Virus record (IMG/VR): IMGVR_UViG_3300018073_000014
Span: 1-35,900 of that record
From: a virus
Lineage: Duplodnaviria; Caudoviricetes
Direction: 5' to 3' (one strand)
DNA length: 35,900 nucleotides
A program made the position numbers and the translations under genes. The notes beneath the pieces are model-generated. The model had not been told where the DNA came from and did no database searches. It was given only the letters and a program-made list of their open reading frames with translations. Shown one piece after another: positions 2,669 through 19,679 of the stretch; positions within the stretch are counted from its first letter, which is position 1; every line of letters begins with the position of its first letter.

Positions 2669-2901
2669 GTCTCTTCGGCCGTCTCCGGCGGCGAAATCGT
2701 GAAGTGACAGTCGTCGTTGATCTCGAAGGTCAGAGTGTAGCCGTTCTCAAAGTGCAGCGCGATGTAGCTCACGTGGTCTTCGAGGAACTCCTCGCGGTCG
2801 TGCTGCGTGATCTCGACGCACCGCTGCCCGACGAACGGCCCGAGCAGCTCCGGGTCGCGGATGTTCGCATACGGCCCTTCCTCGTCGTCATCAGTCGACA
2901 T
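2665..2901 (-). CDS. Hypothetical acidic protein
   Basis: ATG 2901 (MSTDDDEEG...) overlaps the end of terL; AGGTG lies upstream; codon usage is typical of the window. Confidence 0.65.
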   Translation of the reverse strand: MSTDDDEEGPYANIRDPELLGPFVGQRCVEITQHDREEFLEDHVSYIALHFENGYTLTFEINDDCHFTISPPETAEET

Positions 2902-5542: not shown

Positions 5543-5550
5543 TGGCGGGC

Positions 5551-5661: not shown

Positions 5662-6039
5662 CTACGCCTTCGACTTCCGCGGCCGCGCCGGCGGTTTGAC
5701 CTGCGTGCCGGCGGCCTGGCGCGTCTCGAACCCACGGCGGGAACCGCGGCGCCTGGCGATGGTCGTGATGACGTTCTGCTGCCGGTTGATGGCGGCGACG
5801 ACGGCCGGCGGCACGATGTAGCTGCCGCCGCCGTTGGCCGTGATGTGCCGCAGGAAGACCGTCTCGCCGGCGTCCGTGCGGATGGTGCGGACGATCCACT
5901 CTTCCGCGTGCCCGTAGAAGGTGGTCGTCTGGATCGTCGTGCTCTTCGGCTCGATGGCGGCCGGGTCGCGTCGCAGGCGCCCGAGCTCCAGCGAGAAATC
6001 ATCGGTCGGCAGGATGCCGCTCGGCGTGTCGGTGTTCAC
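5662..6039 (-). CDS. Hypothetical protein (125 aa) with a basic C-terminus
   Basis: GTG 6039 in a GTGA overlap (VNTDTPSGILPTDD...); codon usage is typical. Confidence 0.65.
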   Translation of the reverse strand: MNTDTPSGILPTDDFSLELGRLRRDPAAIEPKSTTIQTTTFYGHAEEWIVRTIRTDAGETVFLRHITANGGGSYIVPPAVVAAINRQQNVITTIARRRGSRRGFETRQAAGTQVKPPARPRKSKA

Positions 6040-6278
6040 TTGGTGCCTGCCTTCCTCGCGCGTCGGCGCGACTTGACTTCCGTGATCTTGTCGATGATGT
6101 CGGCTAAGCGCACGGCCTGGCGCGTCACCGATTCGAGCTCGTGCTGCTTCACCGGCGCGGTGAGCATCGCCTGCGGATTCACCATGCACGTGCCGGCAAT
6201 ACCTTCGAGACGAGCGACGAGCGACCGCGCTTCGATAACGGCCGCATCCTTCCAGGTCGCGTCTGTAATTGACTTCAT
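6036..6278 (-). CDS. Hypothetical protein (80 aa)
   Basis: ATG 6278 with GAGG upstream (MKSITDATW...). Confidence 0.6.
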   Translation of the reverse strand: MKSITDATWKDAAVIEARSLVARLEGIAGTCMVNPQAMLTAPVKQHELESVTRQAVRLADIIDKITEVKSRRRARKAGTK

Positions 6279-6331
6279 GGTTGCCTCAGCATGAGAGGAG
6301 AGGCCGGCGCGGTGCCGGCCCCTGGCCCCTG

Positions 6332-7432
6332 CTATGCCGCCTCCGCGATGCGCTTCCACGACGCCGCGCCGACTTCAAGGATGGCGCCGCCGGCGCGTTC
6401 GAGCGCCGTTGCGTCTTCGTAGTCTTTCGTGTCGTTCGCGAGCCGCGTGATCGCCGACGAGAGGCCCCACCGGGTGAAGTCACCGCCCGCCGCGAGCAGC
6501 TTGAGCAAGCCGTTGTCGACCGCCGGCGGCAGCGCGAGCTCGACGATCGTCGCCTCGACGACCTTCGGGAGATCCTCGCTGACGATCGGCGCCGACGCGC
6601 TCAGCTTGATCGAGTCGACCGCCTTGCGGAAGAGATCCTCGCGGAACGCCGCCATCGTCACATCCTTCGCCTTGAGCCAGAAGGCGGCGTCGTCGGCGCG
6701 GCGCGTGGCGTCCTGAAACACTTCCCACGAGGCGTCAGCTTCGTGTGCGCGGCCGACGTGGTATTTCTTCATCGCCGCCTGCTGCATGATCGCCAGGTTC
6801 GTGCACCAGGTCGTGAACACCGCCGGCTCGATCTTGAGCGTGCCGTTGCCGATGTCGCTGTTGCTGATGGTGATGGCGGCGACGAGGCGGCCGCGGTCGC
6901 CCTGCCTGATCATGTGATGGCCGGTGCCGTAGCTGAGGCCCTCGGGGAGCTCGTCGCTGAGCGTCTCCAAGATGCCCTTGATGAACATCCGCGTTTCGGT
7001 GAGCTCGCACGACGTGATCGTGACCTTGTTCTCGATCAGGACCGGCAGCACCGTCTGCGCGAGATCGAAGTTGTCGAGCGGCCGATACTTCGGCGACATG
7101 AAGGCGCGCACCTGCTTGTCGAGCGTGCGGACCATTCGACGCTCGTCGCCGTTCTTGTTGAGCCACGTGTTGACGTTCTTCGCGAGCAGCGCCGGGTCTT
7201 CGGCGCGCATCCGGTCGTAATACTTTTTCGGGATCTCCAGGTGTTCGGCGACCTGACCGTGCGCGTAGTTCGTCAGCGGGAAGGGTTCCCCGTTGATACC
7301 GTCGATGGCGATGTCGTTGTTGTCGGTGACGACGGCGGCGAGTTTGTTCTGCGGCGCGAGGAAGTCTCGCTTGGTTTCCGACTGGCGCTGTAGTTCGGCG
7401 GCGAGCTCGGTGAGCGATCGACCGGATTTCAT
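6332..7432 (-). CDS. DUF932/DUF945-like phage protein
   Basis: MKSGRSLTELAAELQRQ..KRDF start, RMVRTLD..VRAFMSPKYRPLDN, ISNSDIGNG, CTNLA and LERAGGAIL; AGGAG RBS. Confidence 0.8.
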   Translation of the reverse strand: MKSGRSLTELAAELQRQSETKRDFLAPQNKLAAVVTDNNDIAIDGINGEPFPLTNYAHGQVAEHLEIPKKYYDRMRAEDPALLAKNVNTWLNKNGDERRMVRTLDKQVRAFMSPKYRPLDNFDLAQTVLPVLIENKVTITSCELTETRMFIKGILETLSDELPEGLSYGTGHHMIRQGDRGRLVAAITISNSDIGNGTLKIEPAVFTTWCTNLAIMQQAAMKKYHVGRAHEADASWEVFQDATRRADDAAFWLKAKDVTMAAFREDLFRKAVDSIKLSASAPIVSEDLPKVVEATIVELALPPAVDNGLLKLLAAGGDFTRWGLSSAITRLANDTKDYEDATALERAGGAILEVGAASWKRIAEAA

Positions 7433-7500
7433 GGCGGGATGACTCCTGGCGGCGCGCGGTGCCTGGCGGTATTGCCAGCGGATCGCGCCCGACCAGGCCC

Positions 7501-7533
7501 ACGATGACAGCCGGCGGCGTTGTTGTCAACAAC
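7501..7533 (-). promoter_or_regulatory. Promoter with overlapping operator (copy 1): TTGACA-17-TGnCATCGT; operator GTTGTTGACAACAAC
   Basis: Palindrome at 7519-7533 centred on the -35 box (7529-7524). -10 at 7506-7501 with an extended TG. Confidence 0.7.
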
Positions 7534-7570
7534 CGCCGGTCAGTCCTGCACACCCCGGCACACTTTATTT

Positions 7571-7741
7571 TCAGCGGACGGGAAACACCGGGCCACGCAG
7601 CGGCGGATAGGCGAACGCGCCCGCGCAGTAGAGGATGGTCACGATGAGCGCGATGAGCGCGATGAGCTTCGCGTTCTCCGGCACCAGGGTCGTGCAGTAT
7701 TGCGCGATGCAGTAGATCAGGACGATGACGACGAGCAACAT
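7571..7741 (-). CDS. Small two-TM membrane protein (56 aa)
   Basis: Manual translation MLLVVIVLIYCIAQYCTTLVPENAKLIALIALIVTILYCAGAFAYPPLRGPVFPVR; AAGGAAG upstream. Confidence 0.6.
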   Translation of the reverse strand: MLLVVIVLIYCIAQYCTTLVPENAKLIALIALIVTILYCAGAFAYPPLRGPVFPVR

Positions 7742-7745
7742 GCGA

Positions 7746-7862
7746 TCACTTCCTTTTCCGCCGCCGCGTCAGCGCGGCGAGCACCGAGGCGACGACCACT
7801 ATAACCGCGAGCAGCTCTAGCACCTCAAGAATCGCGCCGGTGAAGAGCGCCTGATCGATCAC
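7746..7862 (-). CDS. Small single-TM peptide (38 aa)
   Basis: Manual translation MIDQALFTGAILEVLELLAVIVVVASVLAALTRRRKRK: a hydrophobic helix with a basic tail. Confidence 0.55.
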   Translation of the reverse strand: MIDQALFTGAILEVLELLAVIVVVASVLAALTRRRKRK

Positions 7863-7863
7863 G

Positions 7864-8181
7864 TCAGATCAGCCCTTCCTCGGCGGGCGCCTGGTTGACG
7901 AACGCGCGGCCGAAGCCGAGCCGATCGTTCACGACTTCGTATTCGCGGCCCTCGGCGGTGACGGTGTAGGTCTGCGGCGGCGAGTAGTGCGCCCGGCCGG
8001 CGGCGGCGATCCTGGCGAGCTCGCGCGCCTGCATCATCACGACGTGCTCGCGCTCGCGTGCGACACCGGCTTTCTCACCGAAGGCGAGGCGTTCGCAGCG
8101 GCGACAGAGCCCGAGCTGTGACTGCGACCATTTTTCTTTACAGCGGGTGCACCGGGTTCCATGCGTCGGTGGCCGGCCCAT
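7864..8181 (-). CDS. Zinc-finger protein (CxxC...CxxC)
   Basis: ATG 8181 with an AAGGA RBS; CTRC...CRRC. Confidence 0.65.
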   Translation of the reverse strand: MGRPPTHGTRCTRCKEKWSQSQLGLCRRCERLAFGEKAGVAREREHVVMMQARELARIAAAGRAHYSPPQTYTVTAEGREYEVVNDRLGFGRAFVNQAPAEEGLI

Positions 8182-8183
8182 CG

Positions 8184-8381
8184 TCAGATCCTTTCGTGTT
8201 CTTCGCTGTGATGATCGAGCAGTGCCTTCGCGGTCGGCGCCGTGAAGCCGCACGTGCAGCGCCACACGGACGGCGGCTGACGGTTCGCGGCGCGTGGCGC
8301 CCCGCACGCGCTCTTCTCGAAAGCGGCCTGCACCGCCGCGGTTGCCTCGTCGACCTTGAGCTCGCGATCGTCTTCGTGCAT
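8184..8381 (-). CDS. Small C2H2-like zinc-binding protein
   Basis: GAGGTG RBS; WRCTCG...LLDHHSEEH. Confidence 0.65.
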   Translation of the reverse strand: MHEDDRELKVDEATAAVQAAFEKSACGAPRAANRQPPSVWRCTCGFTAPTAKALLDHHSEEHERI

Positions 8382-8385
8382 GGGT

Positions 8386-8895
8386 TCACCTCACAAGACA
8401 GCCGACCGCGCCGCCGGCGCCCAGGCCGGCAATGATGTCGGTCGCCCAATGGTTACGACTGATGCCGCGCAGGATGCCCGTCGTGATGCTGAGCGCCAGC
8501 ACGTGCGACGTCGGCGGGCCACACAGCGCCGTCATCGGCAGCGCCGAGTGCGCGCTGTAGAAGCTGTGCTGCGGGTCCACGTCAGGGCCGCAGTCGTTCG
8601 GCGCGCACGGTCGACTGCGGTGCACGGCCCGCTTGACGATCGTCACGGCGACATAGGTCAGGCTGACGCGCGTCGCTTCGAGCGTGCACGCCCGCCGGCT
8701 GCGCGTCGCCTCGGCGCCGCAGCTTTGCCAGCCATCCCACACGACCGGCGCGATCGCCGTCACCCAGGACACCGCGCCGGCGACCTTCTGCTCGGTCGGC
8801 GTCGCGTGTGACTCGAAGTATTTGTCGAACATCAGCGGCTGCGCGGCCGCCGGCGCGGCGACGAGCAGCAACAGCGCGATCGTGACGCCTCTCAT
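8386..8895 (-). CDS. PAP2-superfamily membrane phosphatase with signal peptide
   Basis: C1 KRAVHRSRP, C2 SFYSAH and C3 LRGISRNHWATD motifs. Signal peptide MRGVTIALLLLVAAPAAA. ATGA overlap at 8892-8895. Confidence 0.85.
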   Translation of the reverse strand: MRGVTIALLLLVAAPAAAQPLMFDKYFESHATPTEQKVAGAVSWVTAIAPVVWDGWQSCGAEATRSRRACTLEATRVSLTYVAVTIVKRAVHRSRPCAPNDCGPDVDPQHSFYSAHSALPMTALCGPPTSHVLALSITTGILRGISRNHWATDIIAGLGAGGAVGCLVR

Positions 8896-9413
8896 AGACT
8901 CCACCTGATTTCCTCCGCAGACAGCATCGGCGCGACGACGACCGGCGAGCCGTCTGCCCGCACGTCGGACCAGTGCCGCACGCGCACGGCCAGGTCGAGG
9001 CGCTCGCTCGACTTCATCAGGAAGCCGCGGCTCGTGCCGCGCTTGATGGTGATGATGCGCTCGGGCCGGGCGACCTGGCGCAGCGCGTCGCGGTTGAAGA
9101 GAAAGAAATCGCGGTAGTCGCCGACGCCATACCAGCGCGCTTCCGAGCTCGCGAAGATGCCGCTCGCGATCCAGGCCGCTTGCTCCGCGCGCCGCTTCTC
9201 CTCGACTTCGATGAAGAGGTTGCCCGTCTCGACGAAGTGCTGATCGAGTTTCAGCTCGACGTGATCAGGGCCGATGCGCACGTCGCCGTAGCTGATCTGC
9301 GCGCGCTTCGTCTCGTGCCGCACGATCGGGATGCCCTCGCGCGTGAGCCTGGCGACGATGTAGCGTTCCCAAGCTTCGGCACGCGCGAGCTGCTCCGCGT
9401 AATAGTCGCTCAC
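8892..9413 (-). CDS. PD-(D/E)XK-fold putative endonuclease
   Basis: E...GD...VELKLD....TGNLFIE pattern. The GTG start overlaps the methyltransferase stop (GTGA). Confidence 0.7.
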   Translation of the reverse strand: MSDYYAEQLARAEAWERYIVARLTREGIPIVRHETKRAQISYGDVRIGPDHVELKLDQHFVETGNLFIEVEEKRRAEQAAWIASGIFASSEARWYGVGDYRDFFLFNRDALRQVARPERIITIKRGTSRGFLMKSSERLDLAVRVRHWSDVRADGSPVVVAPMLSAEEIRWSL

Positions 9414-10471
9414 GACGCAGCGGCTTCCTTCGCCCACAGCCGCGGATCGTTGCCGAACACCGACCAACCCCTGACCGGCTGCCGCCCGAAGATTTCCAGA
9501 TACGGGCCTTCGGTGTAGAGCTGCTCAATGATCCGCCGGAACTCTTCCGGCTTCTGCGAGTGCACATCGCTGCGGCGAATGGTCTGCACGCTGTCGATCA
9601 TCGGCGTGATGCGATCCGGCGTGCACGAGCCGCGGGTCGCGATGATCAGGTGCTCGTGCCGCACGCTGACGTAGTGTCCGAAGTTGTGAAGAACCTTATC
9701 CCACACGATGCCGGTCTTCGGCTTGAATCCCCAGGCGTCGATTACCTCGATCGGGCCCGGCTTCGTCAAAAGAATCGGCGCCGTCGTCCAGAGGAAGAGC
9801 ACGGCGTTCGGCGTCGTATGTGCTTTCACCGGCAGCGCGCAAAGTTCTTCGATCGTCATGCTCGGGTAGTGCCGCTCAGCGCGGCCATAGGCGTCGTTGT
9901 CGGTGATGATGCCGCTGTCGTTGTAGCTCCACGGCGGATCGGCGTAGATGACGCGATAGAGGCCATCGAGCACCGCCTGCCCACTGACGACCGGCGTGCG
10001 TGCGCGTCGACGCTTCGCTTTTCTTAGGTCGCGCGTCGTCCAGTGTTCACGTTTCGATTCTTCGAGCAGCTCGACCTGATCGGCCTCATTCGTCAGATCC
10101 GCGACGACCATCGCATGAGAGAACGACTGCGCCGAGGCGCGCGCGCGATCGCTGACGTTCCGCGCGACGTAGCCACATTTGCGAAATGTCTCGGCTTCTA
10201 GATCGAGGCCGATATCGGCGAGTGCCTGCGGCAAGAGCTCGTGCCAGTCGTCGCGCTGCTCGGTGTGATTCCAGAGATCACCGATCCAGAACGGCGCCGA
10301 CTCGTTCGCTGCATGGACAAACAAAAAATCAGACGTCCAGTCGGGCAGCGACGGACGGCCCACGATCACCGCGCGTCGAGCGTGCAGGCGACACGCCTTC
10401 AGTTGAATCGGAGTTTCGTCGAAGAGATCGAATTGCTTGCCGGCCTGCACGGTCGGCGGCACGAGCTTCAT
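9410..10471 (-). CDS. MT-A70-family N6-adenine methyltransferase with an N-terminal LmbU-like DNA-binding domain
   Basis: YRVIYADPPW, HYPSM, LFLWTT, WGF, WDK, HEHLIIATRG, HSQKP, YLEIFGR and GWSVFGN. N-terminal FWIGD...SFSHAMVVADL...WTTRDLR resembles LmbU. Confidence 0.9.
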   Translation of the reverse strand: MKLVPPTVQAGKQFDLFDETPIQLKACRLHARRAVIVGRPSLPDWTSDFLFVHAANESAPFWIGDLWNHTEQRDDWHELLPQALADIGLDLEAETFRKCGYVARNVSDRARASAQSFSHAMVVADLTNEADQVELLEESKREHWTTRDLRKAKRRRARTPVVSGQAVLDGLYRVIYADPPWSYNDSGIITDNDAYGRAERHYPSMTIEELCALPVKAHTTPNAVLFLWTTAPILLTKPGPIEVIDAWGFKPKTGIVWDKVLHNFGHYVSVRHEHLIIATRGSCTPDRITPMIDSVQTIRRSDVHSQKPEEFRRIIEQLYTEGPYLEIFGRQPVRGWSVFGNDPRLWAKEAAAS

Positions 10472-10490
10472 CAGGCACGCCTTTCCACTA

Positions 10491-10530
10491 TGTAAAAGTT
10501 ACCGGGAATCAATTCCCGGTAAGTTCTACA
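10491..10530. promoter_or_regulatory. AT-rich palindrome upstream of the methyltransferase (candidate operator)
   Basis: Perfect arms TTACCGGGAAT-CA-ATTCCCGGTAA (10499-10522) within an imperfect 40-bp inverted repeat. Confidence 0.6.
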
Positions 10531-10539
10531 CGGTTCGCT

Positions 10540-11100
10540 TTAGTGACGCACCTCGCCGGTGTCGCCCTGCAGATCCGCTTCGTCAGCTTCGAGCTCTTCG
10601 CCCGCCTCGCCCGCTTCGCCGCCAGCGTCGGCCGTCTCGGGTTCGTTCGTGGTGTCGTTGGCGGCGCGGGCCTTCGCGTCGGTCGGCAGATCCTCGTCGA
10701 CTTCCGCGCTCGCGTTCTCGCCCTTCGTCTTTCTGATCCGCAGCTTCTCTTCGCCTGGCACGCGCGCGAGCTCGACGCCGGCGTGCCGCCAGGTCGTGCG
10801 ATCGTGCTTGCGCATCAGGTTTAGCGCGGTGCGCTTGTGGCCCTGCTCGTCGGCGCGGAGCTCGGCCATCTGATCACGGATGTCGCCGATCGCCGCGGCC
10901 GCGTCGTCGAGCGCCTGAATCCGTTTGCCGAGGCCGCCCGGCAACGGCAGCGCCTGCGAGCGCGGACTCTTCGCCTTCTGTCGCGCGGCCGCCTGGCGCG
11001 CGCCGCTCGTGCCGAGTTTCTTCGTCGGGTCAGCCTTGCCGCCGACGTGCAGATAGCGGCCCTTCGGCGGTTTCGTGCCCTTCGTCTTTTTCTTTGCCAT
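10540..11100 (-). CDS. Hypothetical protein with basic N-terminus, coiled coil and acidic C-terminus
   Basis: ATG 11100 in a TGATG overlap with an AGGAGGAG RBS; MAKKKTKG...EELEADEAD. Confidence 0.75.
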   Translation of the reverse strand: MAKKKTKGTKPPKGRYLHVGGKADPTKKLGTSGARQAAARQKAKSPRSQALPLPGGLGKRIQALDDAAAAIGDIRDQMAELRADEQGHKRTALNLMRKHDRTTWRHAGVELARVPGEEKLRIRKTKGENASAEVDEDLPTDAKARAANDTTNEPETADAGGEAGEAGEELEADEADLQGDTGEVRH

Positions 11101-11606
11101 CACTCCTCCTTGTTGTCGTGTAGAAACGAACCGAGGCAAATCGCCGGCGTCGGTCGATGTTCACCAAACGGAATCCCCTGGCCCATCCGCCGACGATACT
11201 CAGCGAGCAGCAGAGCATCGGCCATCCAGTGCGTAATCGTCAACTCAGGGAAGAGCTCCGCAGCGCGGGCCTTGGTGATGTTTTTGTCGCCGCGGCTGCG
11301 GCAGTCGAGCAGTGACTGCCAACGTATCGGCTGCACCTGGTCGAAGACGATGCGCGTCGCAGCGAGTGCCGTCTCGATCATCCCGTAGCCGCGGCCGAAC
11401 GTGAACGCCGACACGACGCCCATCTGCGGCGAGCTGTGCACCGCTTCGAGCACGGCGCGGATCTCGTCGTGCGTGCGCCAGGCGAGCAAGAGGTTGACGA
11501 GCGCAGCCGGCTGCGTCGGCATCTTCGCCGTGTCGAGCACAAGGCCGCTCGCTTCGAGGAGTGCGAGGCCGCCGCCAAGGCCGGGATCGATACCGAGGTA
11601 AATCAC
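11100..11606 (-). CDS. ruvC: RuvC-like Holliday junction resolvase
   Basis: YLGIDPG, AVLEAV, GVVSAFTFGRGYG, VQPIRWQ and ADALLLAEY. Confidence 0.88.
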   Translation of the reverse strand: MIYLGIDPGLGGGLALLEASGLVLDTAKMPTQPAALVNLLLAWRTHDEIRAVLEAVHSSPQMGVVSAFTFGRGYGMIETALAATRIVFDQVQPIRWQSLLDCRSRGDKNITKARAAELFPELTITHWMADALLLAEYRRRMGQGIPFGEHRPTPAICLGSFLHDNKEE

Positions 11607-11851
11607 GGGTAGGGATCAGCGCGCTGCGGCCCGACGCCGAGCTCGCGGAATTGTTGACGCATGATGTGAAACGTGTGCCCGAGCAGCCGGTGCGCATCCT
11701 CGATCGTCTTTGCGTGCGTGGCGATGATGGCGGCGAGCTCGTAGCTGAGCGCCGTCGCGAGCTCGTCGGGTTCGTAGTCGGCGTGCTCGCGAAGCCAGGC
11801 GCGCAGCGACTCGGTGAGCTGCACCGCCCGAAGCGTTTTGTTGTTGGGCAT
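11603..11851 (-). CDS. Hypothetical protein (82 aa)
   Basis: ATG 11851 (MPNNKTLRAVQ...) lies just downstream of operator/promoter copy 2; the stop overlaps the ruvC start. Confidence 0.65.
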   Translation of the reverse strand: MPNNKTLRAVQLTESLRAWLREHADYEPDELATALSYELAAIIATHAKTIEDAHRLLGHTFHIMRQQFRELGVGPQRADPYP

Positions 11852-11865
11852 GGGGAACGGCGTGC

Positions 11866-11899
11866 ATTGTTGTGAACAACGCCCGTTGTTGTCAACATC
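11866..11899 (-). promoter_or_regulatory. Promoter with tandem operators (copies 2a/2b): TTGACA-18-AACAAT
   Basis: GTTGTTGTCAACATC at 11885-11899 covers the -35 box; ATTGTTGTGAACAAC at 11866-11880 covers the -10 box. Confidence 0.7.
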
Positions 11900-12296
11900 A
11901 AAAGAGCGAGTCAGGCCTCGCGACGCGCTGCGCCGGTCGAAACGCGCGGCAATCGCATTGCCGACTGTCGTGATAGCACGCCCCGCGGCCGTCGACATGG
12001 TCGAGACGCCGATGCGTGCAGACGCAGAACGGCGCCGGCTCGGCCTTCGGCGTGCGTGGCGCGCGCGACTTCTCGGTGCAGGTCCAGAGGTGCGAGGCGG
12101 TGCCGGCGAAGACGTCGAAGCTGACCTGCGTCACCGGGTGCTTCTCCTGGCGCAGCGGCCGCTCGTGCGCGTTGAGCGGGATGCGCCGGCCCTCGTGGGT
12201 GAGCGCCCACACGATCGGCGCCTGGCAATACTTGCACCGGCCTGGCTTTCGGTCGAGGCGCCAAATCCGGTAGGTGACGAAGCCGCCGGTGCGCAT
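11898..12296 (-). CDS. Zinc-binding protein with two Cys/His clusters
   Basis: CKYCQAPIVW..THEGRRIPLN...SHLWTC plus CVCTH....H......C......CDC. The start is placed at ATG 12296 (AAGGGA RBS); the longer ORF would run through the origin-like element. Confidence 0.7.
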   Translation of the reverse strand: MRTGGFVTYRIWRLDRKPGRCKYCQAPIVWALTHEGRRIPLNAHERPLRQEKHPVTQVSFDVFAGTASHLWTCTEKSRAPRTPKAEPAPFCVCTHRRLDHVDGRGACYHDSRQCDCRAFRPAQRVARPDSLF

Positions 12297-12320
12297 CTTC
12301 AGATCCCTTCGTGATGACGT

Positions 12321-12505
12321 GTAAATACTAGAAGAGTAGAAGGTCTGTGGAAAACTCGGACGCTTCCCCGAACCCCTTGAGCCGTCACACTTAGCGCGAG
12401 ATCGACCTGTTGAAAAGCTGTGCACGCTTTGCGGATATCGGCCGTCGAAGATGGTCAGCTCTCCAACGATCCACAGAACATGCACAGCTTTTCCACAGGC
12501 CGATC
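12321..12505. other. oriC-like replication origin: DnaA-trio-like repeats, DnaA boxes and an IHF-like site
   Basis: Trios GAA GAG TAG AAG (12331-12342) beside box TGTGGAAAA (12346-54). IHF-like GAACCCCTTGAGC (12370-82). Left array at 12408/12419/12430 and an opposed right array at 12467/12478/12489, each with an 11-bp period. Confidence 0.78.
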
Positions 12506-12767
12506 AGTCAGTTCGGCCGTCGCGCCCGAGCCCGTGCCGGTCGGCCGCCGCGAGCACCGCCTTGAGCCCCTTGGTTCCGCCGCACCGCCAGCAGCCGGCG
12601 GCCTGGCGCACCTGGTCGAGCTCCTCGGCGGTGACGTCGAGATCCCCGGTCAGCGGGTTCAGGTTGTGCTGCAGGACGGTCAGGATGCGCTGAGAAGGGC
12701 TGCCGTGCGTCGCCCTGGCGCGCATCACCTCGTCGGCTTCGCGTGGCGTCAGGAGCATCCAGGGCAC
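12504..12767 (-). CDS. Hypothetical protein (87 aa)
   Basis: GTG start with AAAGG upstream; it continues the operon. Confidence 0.65.
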   Translation of the reverse strand: MPWMLLTPREADEVMRARATHGSPSQRILTVLQHNLNPLTGDLDVTAEELDQVRQAAGCWRCGGTKGLKAVLAAADRHGLGRDGRTD

Positions 12768-12780
12768 GGCAGCCGCCTTT

Positions 12781-12975
12781 CTAGTTGTTCTGCGCGTTGG
12801 CGCGCACCGCGATCAGCCGCTGCACCTGCGCTTCGAGCTCGCGGCGCTCGGCCTGGCAGGCGACCGGATCAGGATGCGCCCTGGCGACGTGCTCCGTTGG
12901 CGACTCGTCGAATATCTCCGGCGCCTGGCCGGCGACGATCGCCCGCATGGCGCACTGAAGGCACATGACCGGCAT
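12781..12975 (-). CDS. Hypothetical protein with CxxC (64 aa)
   Basis: ATG 12975 in a TGATG overlap; MPVMCLQC... Confidence 0.65.
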   Translation of the reverse strand: MPVMCLQCAMRAIVAGQAPEIFDESPTEHVARAHPDPVACQAERRELEAQVQRLIAVRANAQNN

Positions 12976-13217
12976 CAGTCCGGCACCTTCGAGCCGCGGT
13001 CTTTCTGCCAGCATTCGATCACGGTGACGTCGGCGAGCGCCTGGCGGACCTTCCGCCGCGGCGAGCCGAGGAGCTGCGCGAACATCGCCCAGGCGCGGAT
13101 CGTGAACGGCGTCGCTCGGTCGCGGCCGACGAGCACGAAGACCGGCTCGTCATCGTGGCACCGCCCGAGACATCCTTCGCCCTTCGCGGCCGCGTCGAGC
13201 ACTTCCTTTTTCGTCAT
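12975..13217 (-). CDS. Conserved small phage protein (DEPVFVLxxRD...WA...KxPD family)
   Basis: AAGGA RBS; CL...DDEPVFVLVGRDRATPFTIRAWA...KVPD. Confidence 0.75.
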   Translation of the reverse strand: MTKKEVLDAAAKGEGCLGRCHDDEPVFVLVGRDRATPFTIRAWAMFAQLLGSPRRKVRQALADVTVIECWQKDRGSKVPD

Positions 13218-13232
13218 CGGTTTTCCTTTTGC

Positions 13233-13511
13233 TCAGAATAGCGTTAAGAGTTTCGCCACGCCCGCCGGCGTCACGATCAATTGCACGTTGCGCTTACCAC
13301 GGGTGAGCGCCCGACCGCATTGCGGGCAGCGGACGCAGTCGACGACGTAGCCCCGCTGGCGCAGCCTGGCAATCGACTCAGAGGTGAGTCGCTGATACCC
13401 GTAGGTGAGCGATGTCTCGAATTTGAAATGCTGGCCGATCGGGATCGACGTGCTGCCGGGATGTTCAGCGATGTAGCGCAGCACCGCGAGATCGCGCTGC
13501 GCTCGCGTCAT
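13233..13511 (-). CDS. Winged-helix DNA-binding protein with a Cys-rich insertion
   Basis: VLRYIAEHPGST...IARLRQRGYV...LIVTPAG is a MarR-like pattern, with CVRCPQC in the wing. ATGA overlap at 13508-13511. Confidence 0.65.
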   Translation of the reverse strand: MTRAQRDLAVLRYIAEHPGSTSIPIGQHFKFETSLTYGYQRLTSESIARLRQRGYVVDCVRCPQCGRALTRGKRNVQLIVTPAGVAKLLTLF

Positions 13512-13936
13512 CGTCGCTCTCTCCAATCTGGTTGATCGATGACCTGGCCGAGTCGCGTCGTCTCCGCGAGGAGCTCGGCCACGGTCTGACTGAGGCGCTC
13601 GATGCGCCCGTCGAGCAGCTTCTCGCGGCACTTCGGGCACGTGACGAGCTCAGGGCTGCCGTAGCTGCCATCACCGCCACAGAGCGCGCGCAACGGTTCG
13701 CGACCGAGCCCATTACTCGCCGGCGCGTGGATGCCTGGCGTCGACAGTTGCAGAATCTCCGCTTGCCGCCAGGGCGACGGCAGGAAGCCGCCGCTGCGCA
13801 GCCACTGGTCGAGCGCGAGCACCAGCTCGCACAGGCCGATCGCCTCAATATCGATCGGCTCCTGGTTCACGTCGTGCCGACCGATCAGGCTCTTCGCGAG
13901 CGCGATCTGCTTCACAAGGTTCGTGGTTGGGTCCAC
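13508..13936 (-). CDS. Hypothetical phage protein (MDP..NL...LDxWLxxGGFLP..W) with a zinc-binding segment
   Basis: GTG 13936; ALDQWLRSGGFLPSPW and LCG...VTCPKC. Confidence 0.7.
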   Translation of the reverse strand: MDPTTNLVKQIALAKSLIGRHDVNQEPIDIEAIGLCELVLALDQWLRSGGFLPSPWRQAEILQLSTPGIHAPASNGLGREPLRALCGGDGSYGSPELVTCPKCREKLLDGRIERLSQTVAELLAETTRLGQVIDQPDWRERR

Positions 13937-13937
13937 C

Positions 13938-15107
13938 TCACACCCCTTTCGTGTTCTTCGTGTGGACGACGCCGGGCCAGCGATCGATCGCTTCATGCAA
14001 CGACTCGCCATACTTCCGCACGATCGACTCGTCGACGGCGAGCACGTCGCGCGGGATCTGGCCGGCGTAGCCCTTGAGGAAGCCGCGCACTGTCGCCTCG
14101 TCGACTGGCTTGCCGATCCAGGCGGCGAGCGTCGTGCCGAACTCGACGAAGACGGCATCGGTGAGCAGCCCGGCATCGAGCACCGTTGCGCCCCACCGGG
14201 TGCGCGAGCTCAATCCCGCGGCCGACGACACGCGCGGCCGCTCGACCGGCACATCAACCGAGATCGGGGCCTGCGCCTTCGCCGCCGCCTGCTGACGCAC
14301 TTCGTCGGCAGCGCGACGCGCTTCAAGCGCGGTGAGGATCTTCGGCAATGTGAGCAGCCGCTGTGCGGACGCCGCGGGATCTTTGAAGCCGGCGAGCGAC
14401 GCCGCACGAGCCTCGCGGCCCGGTCGCGTGTCGGCCAGGTAGTAATTGATAAAAGCCTGCTCGCGCGCGCTGACGGTCGGCGCCGCCGCTTCGAGGCGCT
14501 CGGCTTCCTTCGCCGCGGCGGCCGCTTCCTCGTCTCGTTTGCGCCGCTCTTCGGCTTCGAGTGCGCGCCGGCGTTCGTCGGCCTCACGCGCGATCCGTCG
14601 ATTCTCTGTGTCGACGTAATCGTTGTGCAGCTTGTTCGCGATCGCGTTCGCCTGCTCGATGGCATCGGTCGCGACCGCCCGCCGCGCGGTCAGTCGGCGA
14701 TGAAAGCCGTGCACGACGGTCGTGATCGACCAGAGTGCTTCCGCCGCTTTCTTCTGCTCGTTGGTCGTCTTGATGAAGAGCTGCACGCCCTCGTCGGCGG
14801 CCTGCGTTTTCGGTGTGCCGATCTTCTGCAGCTCCTGCGCGATGCCGAGCGTCTGCTTCGCTTTCGTCTCGATGGTGCGCGCCTGCAGGAAGAACTCGCC
14901 GAGGCCTTTCAGGAACGTGACGACGGCGCGGCCGGCCGTCGCGACGAATTCTTGATCGGGTTCCGTGGGTGCGAGCGTGCCCGATGCGAGCACGGCATCG
15001 AAGCTGTCGGTCGAGAGGATCGCGCCGCCGTCGTCGTCGAGCGGAATGCCGTGCAGCTTGCTCGTGCCGGCCCGTCTTCCCACGGGCGGCGTCTTCGTTT
15101 TCGCCAT
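13938..15107 (-). CDS. Coiled-coil protein of the recombination/replication module with an internal TerS-like HTH
   Basis: Long Ala/Glu/Arg coiled coil; C-terminal SSRTRW...IPRDVLAVDE...WPGV; AGGGGG RBS. Confidence 0.8.
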   Translation of the reverse strand: MAKTKTPPVGRRAGTSKLHGIPLDDDGGAILSTDSFDAVLASGTLAPTEPDQEFVATAGRAVVTFLKGLGEFFLQARTIETKAKQTLGIAQELQKIGTPKTQAADEGVQLFIKTTNEQKKAAEALWSITTVVHGFHRRLTARRAVATDAIEQANAIANKLHNDYVDTENRRIAREADERRRALEAEERRKRDEEAAAAAKEAERLEAAAPTVSAREQAFINYYLADTRPGREARAASLAGFKDPAASAQRLLTLPKILTALEARRAADEVRQQAAAKAQAPISVDVPVERPRVSSAAGLSSRTRWGATVLDAGLLTDAVFVEFGTTLAAWIGKPVDEATVRGFLKGYAGQIPRDVLAVDESIVRKYGESLHEAIDRWPGVVHTKNTKGV

Positions 15108-15127
15108 GAACTACCCCCTAGCGGGGC

Positions 15128-15161
15128 AGTCTATCGACCGGCTGAAGTTGTTGTCAACAAC
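15128..15161 (-). promoter_or_regulatory. Promoter with overlapping operator (copy 3): TTGACA-18-TAGACT
   Basis: Exact GTTGTTGTCAACAAC at 15147-15161; -10 TAGACT at 15133-15128. Confidence 0.78.
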
Positions 15162-15195
15162 GAAGGCGGGATGTGTGCAGGGGTGTAAACACGTG

Positions 15196-15245
15196 GGGGC
15201 GACCAGGCCAGCGTGTAGGCGCCTACACCGGACCCTGGCCGCCCC
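15196..15245 (-). terminator. Long GC hairpin, putative terminator or processing site
   Basis: Outer stem GGGGCGGCCAGG/CCTGGTCGCCCC encloses the perfect palindrome GTGTAGGCGCCTACAC (15213-15228). The U-tract is weak. Confidence 0.45.
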
Positions 15246-15256
15246 GCTCTTGGGGG

Positions 15257-15490
15257 TTATCCCTGGTTGGCCGCGACGGCTGCCGCCAGCTTCTCGCGGG
15301 TCGCCTTCAGGTTGGCGACTTCGTCCGTCACCGGCGCGAGCTCCTCGGCGGTTGCGCCGTTTTCGAGCGCCTTCGCGACCGCGGCCTCGATGCGGGCCGC
15401 GATGCCGTCGAGCGCGACGACCGCCGACTCTTCGACGCCGACCGTATCCGTCACTTCCTGCGCGAGCGCGGTCAGAATTTCCTTGCCCAT
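15257..15490 (-). CDS. Small Ala-rich coiled-coil protein (77 aa)
   Basis: ATG 15490 with a GGGAGG RBS; MGKEILTALAQEV...KLAAAVAANQG. Confidence 0.75.
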   Translation of the reverse strand: MGKEILTALAQEVTDTVGVEESAVVALDGIAARIEAAVAKALENGATAEELAPVTDEVANLKATREKLAAAVAANQG

Positions 15491-15500
15491 GCTGCCCTCC

Positions 15501-15782
15501 CTACTCTGTTGACAATGGTGCGCTGTTCTGGCGTGCGACCGCGGCCGCCAGCTTCGCGCGCTCGTCAGCGAGGCGAGCGATCTGCGGCGCGATGTTCTCG
15601 TCTTTCCCGAGCTCGTCGAACCAGCGATCGATCTGCGTGACGACTTCGGAGAGTGTGACGTCTGACTTGTCCGTCTCAAACTCGAAGCTCGCGTCGGGCC
15701 GCACAACGATCTTGATCTTCAGCACGGGAACCCCTTTCGGTCGATACCAGATAACGCGGAACGGCCAAAAGTCTAGCATCAC
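15501..15782 (-). CDS. Hypothetical protein (93 aa)
   Basis: Overlaps the HNH gene stop; C-terminal KLAAAVARQN. Confidence 0.6.
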   Translation of the reverse strand: MMLDFWPFRVIWYRPKGVPVLKIKIVVRPDASFEFETDKSDVTLSEVVTQIDRWFDELGKDENIAPQIARLADERAKLAAAVARQNSAPLSTE

Positions 15783-16312
15783 AACGTCATCGCCGCGAGT
15801 CGTTTCAGTAACGTCGCCTGCTCGGGGGTGAACGGCTCGAAGCTGTGCCGCGCCGTCTCGCGTCCGATCTCGAACCAGCGCGGGCGCGCGCCCTTCACCG
15901 CCGACATCATCCGCACCATGTCAACGTCGAAGGCGCATGGGCCCGCGGCGCCATCCTTCGTCAGCGGCCGCACGCGCAGGCCGGCGCCGTGGATCGAGAT
16001 CGGCAGCGCCCGGTGCCGCGGCCGGCACAGCGTAATTAAATTTTCCGGGTCCGAAGTATCTTCTTTCGGATTGCCGCCCATGCCTTTGTGCTTCAGGTGC
16101 GCGCTTTCGAGCGGCAGCTTGTGCTTGCGGCAGCCGCAGAGCGGGAAGCGACAGTAGCCGTCGCGATCGCGCACGACGTCTTTCTGCTTCCGCTCGCGCG
16201 TCGCGCGCTTCGTCGTGTTCTTTGCGCGCTCGACCTTCAGCACGACGGGCTGCTTGAAGTGCGCGCCAGGTTTCCAGCGCGGCGGCCAGGTGTCGGTGAG
16301 CTCGTCGCTCAT
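15779..16312 (-). CDS. HNH endonuclease
   Basis: VRDRDGYCRFPLC...ESAHL...GMGG...ENLITLCRPRH; ATG 16312 with a GAGG RBS. Confidence 0.82.
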   Translation of the reverse strand: MSDELTDTWPPRWKPGAHFKQPVVLKVERAKNTTKRATRERKQKDVVRDRDGYCRFPLCGCRKHKLPLESAHLKHKGMGGNPKEDTSDPENLITLCRPRHRALPISIHGAGLRVRPLTKDGAAGPCAFDVDMVRMMSAVKGARPRWFEIGRETARHSFEPFTPEQATLLKRLAAMTL

Positions 16313-16404
16313 CGAATCCTCAGCCCGCGGCCGAACGCGACGCCGATCAGGAAGCCGCCCACGAAGACGACCCAAAGCGCGAAGAGGCCGAGAATCAGGC
16401 TCAA
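16309..16404 (-). CDS. Small single-TM peptide (31 aa)
   Basis: Manual translation MSLILGLFALWVVFVGGFLIGVAFGRGLRIR, with 4-nt overlaps at both ends. Confidence 0.55.
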   Translation of the reverse strand: MSLILGLFALWVVFVGGFLIGVAFGRGLRIR

Positions 16405-16679
16405 TGCTTCACCATCAACTTGCAGAGTTCCTGGCGCAGCTCCACGGCGAGCGCATCGAGCTCGTCGTCGAGCAGGTCGGCCTCAACGATCGTCTCCCCG
16501 ATGTCGTTGCTTGTGTCGGGTGTGTCGAGTGCGTCGACGAGCGCCGTGCGATACGACACCATGCCGACGACAAACACGTGCCGCAGTGTTTCGAGCCACT
16601 CGGGATCGAGCGGCTCGGCGCCGACTTTCTCAAACTCGTCGACCAGATCCTGCCAGCAGCGCCGCAACCGATCCGTCAT
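16401..16679 (-). CDS. Hypothetical acidic protein (92 aa)
   Basis: ATG 16679 in an ATGA overlap with an AGGGGG RBS. Confidence 0.7.
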   Translation of the reverse strand: MTDRLRRCWQDLVDEFEKVGAEPLDPEWLETLRHVFVVGMVSYRTALVDALDTPDTSNDIGETIVEADLLDDELDALAVELRQELCKLMVKH

Positions 16680-16786
16680 CGATCCCCCTGGCGATGCTGT
16701 TCGAGCCATCGGGCACTGACGAATTGCGGCGACGGCTCACCCTTCAGCCAGAGCCAGAGACGACGCCAGAGCGGCACGTCGGTCAT
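16676..16786 (-). CDS. Small Trp-rich peptide (36 aa)
   Basis: Manual translation MTDVPLWRRLWLWLKGEPSPQFVSARWLEQHRQGDR, with ATGA overlaps at both ends. Confidence 0.55.
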   Translation of the reverse strand: MTDVPLWRRLWLWLKGEPSPQFVSARWLEQHRQGDR

Positions 16787-17400
16787 GCACAGCACTCGCG
16801 GATGATACGTCGAGCCTCGTCGAAATCGCGACGGTCAGGGAACCGCTCGACCTTGAAGCGTCCGCTCGGGCGCAGGTAGAACGCGAGGCGCTCGTAGTGC
16901 TCGGCCGGCAGTCCGCCGCGCGCGCCGCTGACGAGGATCGCCTGCAGCGCCGTCTGTAGTGCGTCGCTCTTTTTCGGGTCGCCGCTCTTCACCTCGGCGA
17001 TCGTGCGGCAGCCATACATCAGGCCGACACGATCCGGCCGCCCGCCGAAGCGGTAGCCCCAATGCACGAAGGGCACCTCGATCGACTCCCACGTCGGCCG
17101 CGTGCAATTGGTCGCCGCGACGTAGCCGAGCAGGTAGTTGCGGAACGGCGAGACGCACGTGCGCGCGTCGAGCGAGCCGAGATCGTAGTGCTTCGTGAGC
17201 TCGTGCACGCACGTGCCGCGGTCGCTGCCTTCGTCGGTGAACCAGAGATCGTCGATGTAGCCGGTCTGCTGCAGCATCCCCGTGATGTGCGGGAGCTGCT
17301 CGCCGGTGTCGAGCGCGGTGTAAGCGTGATCGATCGCATCGAAGCGGAACGCGCCGCCGTTGGCGACCGGGCCGAAATCATCGAGTTCAGCGCGGAACAT
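16783..17400 (-). CDS. PD-(D/E)XK (RecB/Cas4-like) exonuclease
   Basis: FDAIDHAY, RGTCVH, E..FVH..YRFGGRPDR, IAEVKSG and LQTA; lies one small ORF downstream of the annealase. Confidence 0.82.
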   Translation of the reverse strand: MFRAELDDFGPVANGGAFRFDAIDHAYTALDTGEQLPHITGMLQQTGYIDDLWFTDEGSDRGTCVHELTKHYDLGSLDARTCVSPFRNYLLGYVAATNCTRPTWESIEVPFVHWGYRFGGRPDRVGLMYGCRTIAEVKSGDPKKSDALQTALQAILVSGARGGLPAEHYERLAFYLRPSGRFKVERFPDRRDFDEARRIIRECCA

Positions 17401-17578
17401 CAATCCCCCAACTTTCAAGTTCTGACTTCGGAGTCTTTTCGATCACGAGCCGGCGGAACGCGCGCAGCTCCGCGAGCTCGTCCACGATCCGCACGACGAG
17501 TGACCAGCGCAGGCCGTAGCAGACCGGCATGAGCGCGCGCAGCACCGCATCAAGATCGCGCGTGTGACTCGGGATCAT
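17387..17578 (-). CDS. Hypothetical protein (63 aa)
   Basis: ATGA overlap with the annealase stop; GGAGG RBS. Confidence 0.55.
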   Translation of the reverse strand: MIPSHTRDLDAVLRALMPVCYGLRWSLVVRIVDELAELRAFRRLVIEKTPKSELESWGIDVPR

Positions 17579-18600
17579 CCTTCCTCCCCTGGCTCGCGCT
17601 CGTGCGGGCCCTCGTGCATGTTGCTCTCGTCGTCGACCTGGCGCGGCGGTGTGGAAAACATCGGCGCCGGCGCCTCGATCGCCGCACAGACGGCGTCGTA
17701 GTCTTTCTGCTTGATGCTCTTCGTCGAGTCGAGCTGATAGTGTCCCTTGAGCCAGGCGCGGAAGGTCGCCTCGTCGCGCCCACTACTGCGCAGAATGGCA
17801 AACAATCTTTTCCGCTGTGGCGCGGTAATGGGCTGCTCGCTGTTGCCGTCGTGATGGCCGGGCGCCTGGCGCCGGTCCTGTCGTTGCTGCTGCACGCTGT
17901 CACCTCCACGGTTGCCGACTTCGTTCCAGAACGGCGGATCGATCGCGCGCCGCCACTTATACGGGTTCTTCTCGTGGCTCGTCGTCATCACCTTGACGCA
18001 GCGCGTCGCCATGAAGTGATTCAGCCAGGGGCGATCCCACAGCTCCAGGCCGACGCCGAGCCGCTTCGCGCAGCGCCGCAGCGCCGAGGCGACCGTCGCT
18101 TCGAGCGCGTCGCCGTAGGTCTGATCTTTGTTGTCGTCGAAATACTCTTGCTCACCGAACGCCATCGCCGCCGGCTTGCCGTGGATGTAGAGCACATACG
18201 GGCAGACGACGCTGTTGCCGGATCGCATCGGCTTCGCGCGCGGCACCAGGTTCCAGCCGAGGCGCCCGAAGGCGCGATTGAACCAGCGCGTATAACCAGG
18301 GTGTGAGAGGAACGGCCGGCCGTTCGGTTTGATCTCGACGTCGTCGACACGCACCGGCTCGGCGAGCACTTTCTCTTCGGCCTTCGTCAGCTTGATCTCG
18401 ACCAGGCCGAGCGCGCCGAGCGCCGTCTCCTCGCCGAGCACGTTCAGGTCATTTCCCGACTGTCGGGAAATGTCGACCGCCGGCGCGGCGACGAGCTCAG
18501 CCCGCCGCGCTTTTGCAAGCATTCGAGAGGGGGGTGTATGCGACTTCCGACGCGCGAGCGCCGTCGACGGCTTCGCCGGTTTCTTCCGTTTGGTTGTCAT
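17575..18600 (-). CDS. Mgm101/Rad52-like single-strand annealing recombinase
   Basis: DVEIKPNG...NRAFGRLGWNLVPR...HG......GEQEYF...ALRRCAKRLGVGLELWD closely follows the yeast Mgm101 core. There is an additional C-terminal helical domain ITAPQRKRLFAI. Confidence 0.85.
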   Translation of the reverse strand: MTTKRKKPAKPSTALARRKSHTPPSRMLAKARRAELVAAPAVDISRQSGNDLNVLGEETALGALGLVEIKLTKAEEKVLAEPVRVDDVEIKPNGRPFLSHPGYTRWFNRAFGRLGWNLVPRAKPMRSGNSVVCPYVLYIHGKPAAMAFGEQEYFDDNKDQTYGDALEATVASALRRCAKRLGVGLELWDRPWLNHFMATRCVKVMTTSHEKNPYKWRRAIDPPFWNEVGNRGGDSVQQQRQDRRQAPGHHDGNSEQPITAPQRKRLFAILRSSGRDEATFRAWLKGHYQLDSTKSIKQKDYDAVCAAIEAPAPMFSTPPRQVDDESNMHEGPHEREPGEEG

Positions 18601-18701
18601 CGGGTTCCTTTTTCGGGTAGGCTAGCGGTGCTTTCGGTTCGCTTGCTGTCCCCTTCGCTTGACGGCCGCCCGCTTCCACACGGGCGGCCGTTTCTGTTTT
18701 T
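18594..18701 (+). ncRNA. Putative antisense sRNA of about 70 nt with its own promoter and intrinsic terminator
   Basis: Plus-strand TTGTCA (18594-99)-18-TAGGCT (18618-23). Hairpin ACGGCCGCCCG-CTTCCACA-CGGGCGGCCGT (18662-91) followed by TTCTGTTTTT. Confidence 0.55.
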
Positions 18702-18707
18702 CAGCTC

Positions 18708-18845
18708 CTAGTCATCCCACACGATCGCGTCGATCGCCGCGCGCAATTTCCGCGCCCCTTCAGCGGACGGGCTCGCGATGAACGCACGCGCCGCCGCCTG
18801 CGCCGCCGCGACCTGCGCCTCGTGGTTCGGGTCTTTCTTCGCCAT
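18708..18845 (-). CDS. Small hypothetical protein (45 aa)
   Basis: Manual translation MAKKDPNHEAQVAAAQAAARAFIASPSAEGARKLRAAIDAIVWDD; TGATG overlap. Confidence 0.6.
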   Translation of the reverse strand: MAKKDPNHEAQVAAAQAAARAFIASPSAEGARKLRAAIDAIVWDD

Positions 18846-19120
18846 CACGCTACCTTCCCTTTCTGCCTTGTGGCTTCTGCCTCTTCGACGAGCTCCTCGA
18901 CTTCCGCTTCGGCCTCGCGCGTGCCGATCTGCTCGCAGCGCGTCAGGAAGATGATGACGTCGGCGTCGCTCGTCTCCTCGACTTCGCGCGTCGCGACCTT
19001 CGCCAGCCGCCGGCGCACGTGCTCGAAGCGCGTCGATGACGTCGGCGTCAGCACGCCCTGCACGCGGTCGCCGCCTTTTTTCCCTCGGTAAATGGATGCC
19101 CGCCCGGTGGTGACTTTCAT
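18845..19120 (-). CDS. Putative ribbon-helix-helix transcriptional repressor (first early gene, leaderless)
   Basis: Strand RVQGVLT, helix to RRRLAK, then helix SDADVIIFL. The ATG sits 7 nt downstream of the -10 box of an operator-bearing promoter. Confidence 0.55.
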   Translation of the reverse strand: MKVTTGRASIYRGKKGGDRVQGVLTPTSSTRFEHVRRRLAKVATREVEETSDADVIIFLTRCEQIGTREAEAEVEELVEEAEATRQKGKVA

Positions 19121-19126
19121 GCGGGT

Positions 19127-19159
19127 AGGGTAGCTGTGCGGTGCGATGTTGTCAACAAG
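19127..19159 (-). promoter_or_regulatory. Promoter with overlapping operator (copy 4): TTGACA-17-TACCCT
   Basis: GATGTTGTCAACAAG at 19145-19159; -10 at 19132-19127; the predicted +1 coincides with ATG 19120. Confidence 0.75.
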
Positions 19160-19600
19160 TCAGGACGGGCGGCGCGGCGGCAGGTCGTCATCGCGTCGGC
19201 TTGGTCCCCAGGCGGCCATTACGTTCTTCGCTTGGTGCATCACGATCGACATCTCGCGCGTCGCCGCGGCGTCGTCGGTCAGGGCCTTTGTCGTGCCCTG
19301 CACGAGCTCGACAATGATCTTCGTTTGCGCCTGCCATTGGTCACTCTGCTTCTGCCAGAAGTCTGTAAGTTTTACGTAGTCGCGTCGGTAGAAAAACAGG
19401 ACCACGATCAGCACCAGCAGCAGGCCGCCCTGCCGCAGTGCTACTTCGAAGAGCTGCTCTGAGCCCGTTGGCGGCACCGAGTTCACCCCCTGCTCAATCG
19501 ACGTCGTGACGAGGCCAGCGACAAAGATCGCGCCGCCCGCGATCGAGGCCCGAAGCGCGTCGAGAAAGAGGCTGCCCGGCCCTAGTAGTCGTTGCGGCAT
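19160..19600 (-). CDS. Putative holin (BhlA-like membrane protein)
   Basis: Hydrophobic segments IAGGAIFVAGLVTT and QGGLLLVLIVVLFFY followed by a coiled coil; downstream of the putative lysin. The start is inferred at ATG 19600. Confidence 0.6.
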   Translation of the reverse strand: MPQRLLGPGSLFLDALRASIAGGAIFVAGLVTTSIEQGVNSVPPTGSEQLFEVALRQGGLLLVLIVVLFFYRRDYVKLTDFWQKQSDQWQAQTKIIVELVQGTTKALTDDAAATREMSIVMHQAKNVMAAWGPSRRDDDLPPRRPS

Positions 19601-19649
19601 CAAGAGTTTACGTCTATTCTCAGCCGTTCGGTTGAATGGTTGCACCAAA

Positions 19650-19665
19650 TGTTCCACGTGGAACA
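19650..19665. promoter_or_regulatory. parS: parS centromere-like site (chromosomal ParB/Spo0J consensus)
   Basis: Intergenic TGTTCCACGTGGAACA, within the perfect 18-bp palindrome 19649-19666, matches the widespread chromosomal parS consensus. Confidence 0.85.
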
Positions 19666-19679
19666 TATGCCGTGCCAGG

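Follow-up and report, generated by a model that had tools for sequence, protein, structure and literature searches.

A putative host-DnaA-type origin and a parS site in a podophage without recognisable replication genes

How a phage copies and keeps its DNA when no gene for replication, integration or partition can be recognised in it is the question raised by the virus record IMGVR_UViG_3300018073_000014, of which a 35.9-kb fragment (the window; CheckV 77% complete) was analysed at its full length. To our knowledge, tailed phages either bring their own initiator or integrate. The window carries an element of 173 bp that resembles a bacterial oriC and, 7.15 kb away, an exact chromosomal-type parS, in agreement with a preliminary description that had placed two host-type cis elements about 7 kb apart. 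As detailed below, the phage probably holds a host-DnaA origin together with a ParB site, and there are good grounds to expect that it initiates replication with host DnaA.

The search for genes that could do otherwise was negative. No replication, integration or partition family was matched by the 53 open reading frames (ORFs) of the window in PHROGs or Pfam, nor by 28 further ORFs of the window phage and its relative G002 in NCBIfam. The preliminary description had named an integrase, Rep, polymerase or ParAB in the unseen part as what would speak against it. Family searches of the window (G000) and of G001, G003, G004 and G015 revealed no tyrosine integrase, serine recombinase, DnaB, ParB, ParA, HTH_36 initiator, Prim-Pol or PolA. 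The integrase search was sensitive here, with integrases found in 6/17 terminase relatives. The presence of integrating phages among these relatives is what could favour integration by an unrecognised recombinase or by host XerCD, the cis sites being leftovers. We consider this very improbable, given that no tyrosine or serine recombinase was found, that no dif-like site was detected within 7 mismatches in G000 or G001 (using a consensus that we take to be general and that may not be that of the host), and that an active second oriC would presumably be costly in a chromosome.

An oriC-like element and a parS site

Read along the minus strand, the element consists of three DnaA-type boxes in one direction, a 31-bp spacer, three boxes in the opposite direction and an IHF-like stretch, followed by one perfect box and then four DnaA-trio-like repeats (Table 1). 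Two boxes on opposite strands match TT(A/T)TNCACA perfectly and another has one mismatch, while weaker boxes with a pitch of about 11 bp complete the two inverted arms. The DnaA-box cluster scored 5, whereas none of 300 Markov simulations exceeded 4; no origin was apparent from GC skew. According to the accessible part of PMC8287927, the basal unwinding system of the Bacillus subtilis oriC (boxes 6/7 plus DnaA-trios) requires a DnaA box with no more than 2 mismatches, a spacer of 0-16 bp and at least three NAN trios. The window shares this arrangement, with a perfect box, a 3-bp spacer and four NAN trios; the rule also holds in G001 and G004.

The inward-facing arrays are likewise shared with bacterial oriC regions, and their order and orientation are those of the dnaA-dnaN regions of one Acidobacteriota class. 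Unlike those regions, the element lies on a phage of 46 kb, has no dnaA or dnaN beside it, and is known from sequence alone. As it is flanked by phage genes, it is oriC-like but not a chromosomal origin. The 20 genome matches to an origin-like 20-mer were attributed to chance.

Conservation was assessed against G001, a relative of 46,436 bp with about 88% identity, whose ends overlap by 488 bp at 99.8% identity and which is therefore a closed circle, as the preliminary description had proposed to check; its frameshifts resemble sequencing errors. The seven hand-delimited boxes are identical at 58/63 positions and the trios at 12/12, compared to 6/31 and 17/34 in the two spacers. Of the mimicry of host DnaA and IHF sites suggested earlier, the candidate IHF-like site, for which we assume an IHF/HU motif, is the weakest part, its spacing being host-like by eye and its stretch only 17/34 identical. 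In runs X1 and X2, a metagenome contig departs from the window at 12296.

To compare the element with host origins, a profile was built from 30 dnaA-dnaN regions of a single Acidobacteriota class (that of G168, which from its GC we take to be Vicinamibacteria). The top ranks were G004, G003, G000, M178 and G015 (E 8e-5 to 0.07), all carriers of a box array, whereas the best array-less record had an E value of 16. In the window, profile positions 28-192 matched 12488-12325 (E 0.008), with 14.3 bits compared to a maximum of 11.1 in 60 simulations, and for G004, G003 and G000 the match was nearly full length and in the same orientation as in the host dnaA-dnaN origins. In addition, TTTTCCACA is the commonest box near the dnaA genes of the sampled Acidobacteriota. 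That the host belongs to this class is suggestive only, the profile covering a single class. Among 401 genomes from the candidate host class, one contains a related portal (52%) on a contig of 43 kb, of which the 39 kb examined look like phage DNA throughout, with neither array nor parS; this is weak evidence on the host.

The parS, TGTTCCACGTGGAACA, was identified against what we take to be the chromosomal consensus, and is the only site of the window with fewer than 3 mismatches. It is intergenic, with a putative lysin on one side and a putative holin on the other, and is exactly kept in G001 although its flanks have changed. Its location differs among relatives: between lysis genes in G000 and G001, just after the terminase gene in G015, and, in G003 (L194:5645-5660) and G004 (L198:14968-14983), as an in-frame part of the giant internal virion gene. 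The site seems to have moved, as the flank in G001 still resembles the in-gene flank. The exact 16-mer was present in 145/401 sampled Acidobacteriota genomes (143/399 without the unpublished G046 and G174) and its reversed control in 0, and in several of these genomes parS lies 8-30 kb from dnaA. The phage site likely loads host ParB. Matches with two mismatches in G008, G017, G018, G790, G796 and G798 were rejected as chance, since the reversed control matched 2/19 and 1/20 records.

Exchange of replication genes for the box array among relatives

An alignment of the annealase recovered 19 further records of IMG/VR and 45 metagenome loci. In all, 28 records were analysed: the 19 IMG/VR records, each at full length, G000, G001 and 7 of the 45 loci, chosen as long and not duplicating a viral record. 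Six carried a box array (G000, G001, G003, G004, G015 and M178), and a seventh, incomplete array was detected at the end of L152. SF2 helicase was found in 0/6 array carriers vs. 19/22 others, an initiator-like gene in 0/6 vs. 18/22 and DnaB in 0/6 vs. 14/22; at least one of the three was present in 21 of the 22 array-less records. The initiator-like gene (150-200 amino acids) is named by position only and has no family match; G009 has a PHROG-annotated initiator in its place. Array and replication genes occupy the same slot, between the coiled-coil gene and the resolvase, and the small cluster 30 gene that precedes the origin in the window precedes the initiator-like gene in the origin-less G005, G013 and G021 (and also DnaB in G005 and G021). 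The array and the family's own replication module are therefore mutually exclusive, and this swap of genes for an origin is the new evidence, each part having precedent.

The parS followed the array: with up to 1 mismatch it was found in 5/5 array-bearing viral records vs. 0/16 other viral records, M178 being partial with no parS in its 21 kb.

A second set was taken from the best 80 of 585 terminase relatives, of which 17 near-complete new records were read. None had a full array, and therefore the origin type is a minority of the family. Eight shared the same early module, with the initiator-like gene in 8/8, SF2 helicase and DnaB in 7/8, and no integrase, array or exact parS (0/8). In G793 (L444:400-900), a helix-turn-helix (HTH) initiator-like frame upstream of the resolvase has a DnaA-box pair inside it. 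G793 also has a palindromic parS variant and is a possible intermediate between an own replicon and a pure oriC.

These data bear on a rival reading in which an unrecognised phage protein of small size acts as initiator or loads the helicase, and DnaA only assists, as it does at P1 oriR and at many origins of plasmids. The combination found in G793 agrees with this, and so does the enrichment in array carriers of two small Cys-rich families, phrog_5984 (zinc-finger-like; 6/6 vs. 2/22 others), which lies directly after the origin, and cluster 31 (6/6 vs. 4/22), an enrichment that also counts against the host-DnaA reading. Nevertheless, such an initiator appears improbable: both proteins are below 150 amino acids, match no initiator family and occur in relatives with their own module, no iterons were seen besides the DnaA boxes, and the element has the whole layout of a host origin. 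P1 and other plasmid prophages likewise have DnaA boxes at the origin, a partition site and no integration. The RepA and ParA/ParB that they encode and the iterons on which they rely were not found in the window phage.

The array could also be a decoy, similar to datA or DARS, which would stall replication of the host by titrating DnaA or re-tuning it, the phage itself being copied by recombination and host restart proteins. Recombination genes are indeed present, and phages of the T5 type, as described in the accessible part of 10.1101/866236, resemble the window in having ordered DnaA-box pairs in non-coding DNA, at the injection stop, and differ in having their own replication genes; in the author's view the boxes there are not an origin. 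Against a decoy, the trios of the window phage show full conservation and the correct placement, the element stands in for the replication genes rather than supplementing them, and the link with parS would be left unexplained; we regard a decoy as quite improbable.

Other differences accompany the two types. A KTSC-domain gene precedes the early operon (L200:18618-18980 and homologues) in 15/22 array-less records and in 0/6 array carriers, and G793 has this gene plus the parS variant. In array-less relatives, SF2 helicase and the initiator-like gene are also separated by some 450 bp of conserved non-coding DNA (L203:14290-14720, L220:16540-17000, L216:13680-14160, L217:14480-14900, L231:15060-15530, L234:6330-6830, L227:9100-9560, L211:3360-3800 and L205:4880-5400), in which 20/31 predicted pairs change on both sides among 9 aligned copies, with no match to Rfam or to tRNA; it is a candidate RNA-based origin or copy-control leader. 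Rfam had no match in the window, L203 or L220, and no tRNA or tmRNA was found in 11 loci. In G015, the origin is directly followed by a gene for an Acb2/Tad1-like anti-defence hairpin protein (L229:9539-9817), and the SF2 helicase of G020 has an intein-like insertion (L242:3-3521).

Early genes, promoters and the virion module

The features of the window are collected in Table 1. All recognised genes are on the minus strand, in line with the single strand noted in the preliminary description, and the annealase, exonuclease, resolvase and HNH nuclease that it listed as recombination functions were confirmed. The annealase had no match among 50,697 GenBank phages, and two peptide patterns found no relative of it in genome contigs, which does not show that prophages are absent. 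No fold match, initiator domain or ATPase domain was seen in the 389-residue coiled-coil protein. A restriction-enzyme-like gene (phrog_13596; few relatives) follows the MT-A70 methyltransferase (8892-10471 for both).

The early promoters are of a strong sigma-70 type, in a single-strand layout without a divergent repressor, unlike the integrating relatives G787 and G790. The palindrome over the -35 box is family-wide, and its doubled copy follows the origin in G000, G001, G003 and G004.

By its gene content, the phage is a podophage with a virion module of the BPP-1/epsilon15 type (portal PF12236, capsid GP7, Bbp16, Bbp19 and a T7-gp14-like internal protein); this module is shared with BPP-1/epsilon15-like podophages, whereas the early region is unrelated. 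The missing 10 kb correspond to head and tail genes, as read in G001 and G002; G002 spans them with frames intact (portal end, Bbp19-like, scaffold, capsid, Bbp16 and tail genes). G003 has direct terminal repeats. An internal virion protein of 2976 amino acids with an LPD22 domain (24048-32978) ranges from 2000 to 3900 amino acids in relatives, and in G001 and G002 an unrelated block of smaller size stands in place of the collagen-like tail-fibre block (21270-23794). Of 24 listed public runs, the 6 that contain at least half of the early region are freshwater sediment and soil metagenomes, 3 of them possibly the source, and no RNA dataset was among the listed runs that hold it.

Table 1. Positions of the features of the window (one-strand numbering of the 35,900-nucleotide stretch).
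Feature	Position	Strand	Remarks
Terminase large subunit	2891..4357	-	BPP-1/epsilon15-like virion module; small subunit 4985-5899, portal 3-1325
Small Cys-rich protein, cluster 31	7864..8307	-	start probably further in
MT-A70 adenine methyltransferase	9410..10471	-	LmbU-like N-terminal part
RuvC-like Holliday junction resolvase	11100..11606	-	phrog_1770
Small zinc-finger-like protein	11898..12296	-	phrog_5984; just after origin
Whole oriC-like element	12326..12498	-	inverted box arrays, IHF-like spacer, last box, trios
Four DnaA-trio-like repeats (central A)	12332..12343	+	3 bp from the 12346 box; 12/12 identical in G001
Perfect DnaA box	12346..12354	-	adjoins unwinding region
Candidate IHF/HU-like bend site	12372..12395	-	about 40 bp before last box, as in host origins; weakly conserved
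Proximal array, 3 DnaA-type boxes	12407..12438	-	inverted vs. distal array; 1-mismatch box 12408-16 (-); kept in G001
Distal array, 3 DnaA-type boxes	12467..12498	+	11-bp pitch: 12467-75, 12478-86, perfect 12489-97 (+); kept in G001
Cluster 30 small gene	12504..12767	-	precedes origin; marks shared slot
Coiled-coil protein, 389 amino acids	13938..15107	-	in nearly all relatives
HNH nuclease	15779..16375	-	
PD-(D/E)XK exonuclease	16783..17418	-	
Mgm101/Rad52-type annealase	17575..18600	-	PF06420, E 2.6e-31
First early gene, candidate ribbon-helix-helix regulator	18845..19120	-	apparently leaderless; weak fold matches, Z under 4
Candidate operator, TTGTTGACAACA palindrome containing the early promoter -35	19146..19158	-	copies 15148-60, 11867-98 (double), 7520-32
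Chromosomal-type parS	19650..19665	.	perfect palindrome, TGTTCCACGTGGAACA

Lifestyle and significance

Several further observations weigh against a host-DnaA origin or against a plasmid-like phage. No family could be assigned to about half of the early ORFs. M178 does not follow the trio rule, which G003 and G015 satisfy only elsewhere, at a weaker position. The match of G001 to the host profile is poor (E 7 and 27). In a soil contig of run X5, with flanks about 99% identical to the window, 324 other letters replace exactly the intergenic stretch 12297-12520; they may represent either another allele of the origin or a counter-example. The Fisher values for the associations with the array (5e-5 to 1.5e-3) overstate the independence of the records, because the carriers may share one descent event: trees give 1 to 3 origins, the portal tree grouping five carriers weakly and the concatenation splitting the carriers in three, with a careful tree for one marker only and FastTree for the others. 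The recombination genes are family-wide, including relatives with their own replication genes, and therefore are no adaptation to the origin.

Regarding parS, the exact site is estimated to occur in 2600 IMG/VR viral stretches over a wide GC range (from 3/64 parts), and a distant relative, G800 (47% GC), combines it with an integrase and an initiator; therefore, parS alone does not imply a plasmid prophage. Its joint occurrence with DnaA-box arrays, which the preliminary description had proposed to survey, held among the relatives, but no comparable array was found in 80 listed parS loci of viral stretches. Host parS in phage DNA is perhaps widespread (L009-L129), although some of these stretches may be host DNA.

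Finally, the lack of integrase (0/22 first-set records) includes relatives that have their own module, in which ParA is missing as well; this suggests a lytic group. Of the earlier plasmid-like reading, the use of cis-acting mimics is supported by the oriC anatomy, by the replacement of replication genes in one slot and by the association with parS, whereas the temperate state is not, since the lack of integrase extends to the whole group.

A temperate mini-chromosome is nonetheless the lifestyle that we tentatively prefer. After injection the phage DNA would circularise; host DnaA-ATP would fill the arrays, with a bending protein acting at the spacer, and the DnaA filament would open the trios so that host helicase and polymerase could load. 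Because firing would be confined to times at which the host itself is able to initiate, the circle would wait at low copy, and parS with ParB would see it through division, lytic amplification then depending on annealase, exonuclease and resolvase. Persistence is favoured by the presence of the palindrome on every early promoter, where it could be bound by the small leaderless regulator, and by the fact that parS tracks DnaA-box use, as expected if DNA awaiting host initiation must survive division.

The same host-DnaA origin could also serve a strictly lytic phage, for the first rounds of replication with recombination providing the rest, in which case parS might place the DNA near the host origin or replisome, load SMC, or tune ParA and DnaA. 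The lack of integrase in the first set (0/22) and in the second-set records that share the early module (0/8), and of ParA in both, fits such a phage, as does the promoter layout described above. Phage phi29 encodes its own protein-primed replication. Like the window, it carries host ParB/Spo0J sites on its DNA without encoding the protein and, although classed as lytic, has five of them; unlike the window, according to the accessible part of PMC2731898, it is linear, uses the sites for spore entrapment and has no oriC. In B. subtilis, moreover, ParB at one parS site exerts control over ParA and, through ParA, over DnaA, as reported in the available portion of PMC7614844. Against a strictly lytic phage stand the coupling of parS to DnaA-box use (5/5 vs. 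0/16, with the palindromic variant in G793) and the operator candidate on every early promoter, and on balance we hold it to be unlikely.

Known systems with similarities also include extrachromosomal RepA-less mycobacteriophage prophages, in which a maintenance cassette replaces a colinear module and no phage initiator protein is present; they differ from the window in having their own parABS and RNA-based origins, and the term DnaA has 0 occurrences in the accessible text (PMC7157519). An Ori-Finder origin prediction is given for one Pseudomonas phage in the available part of PMC11512268. No publication was found on a phage with a complete host-type origin plus a host parS in place of its replication genes, subscription journals and supplements being outside the search. 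Minichromosomes based on oriC exist as laboratory constructs, and the element of the window is natural, not engineered.

In its fullest form, which we put forward as possible though somewhat less likely than not, the phage would be a natural viral mini-chromosome that has discarded all of its replication genes and copied the oriC and centromere of the host in cis. Host DnaA would then have it replicated a single time in each cell cycle, and host ParABS would segregate it. DnaA-ATP would act as a sensor of host growth, and the origin as a cassette exchangeable, in the same slot, with protein- and RNA-based replicons. A phage copied from a complete host-type oriC would have no trans-acting part as a replicon and be invisible to lifestyle tools that use integrase, Rep or Par genes. 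The family offers matched pairs, with either its own module or oriC plus parS in one slot, making the role of phage-borne DnaA boxes and parS directly testable. The arrays are also candidate minimal origins, with possible use in vectors, for Acidobacteriota of a group that has hardly been cultured.

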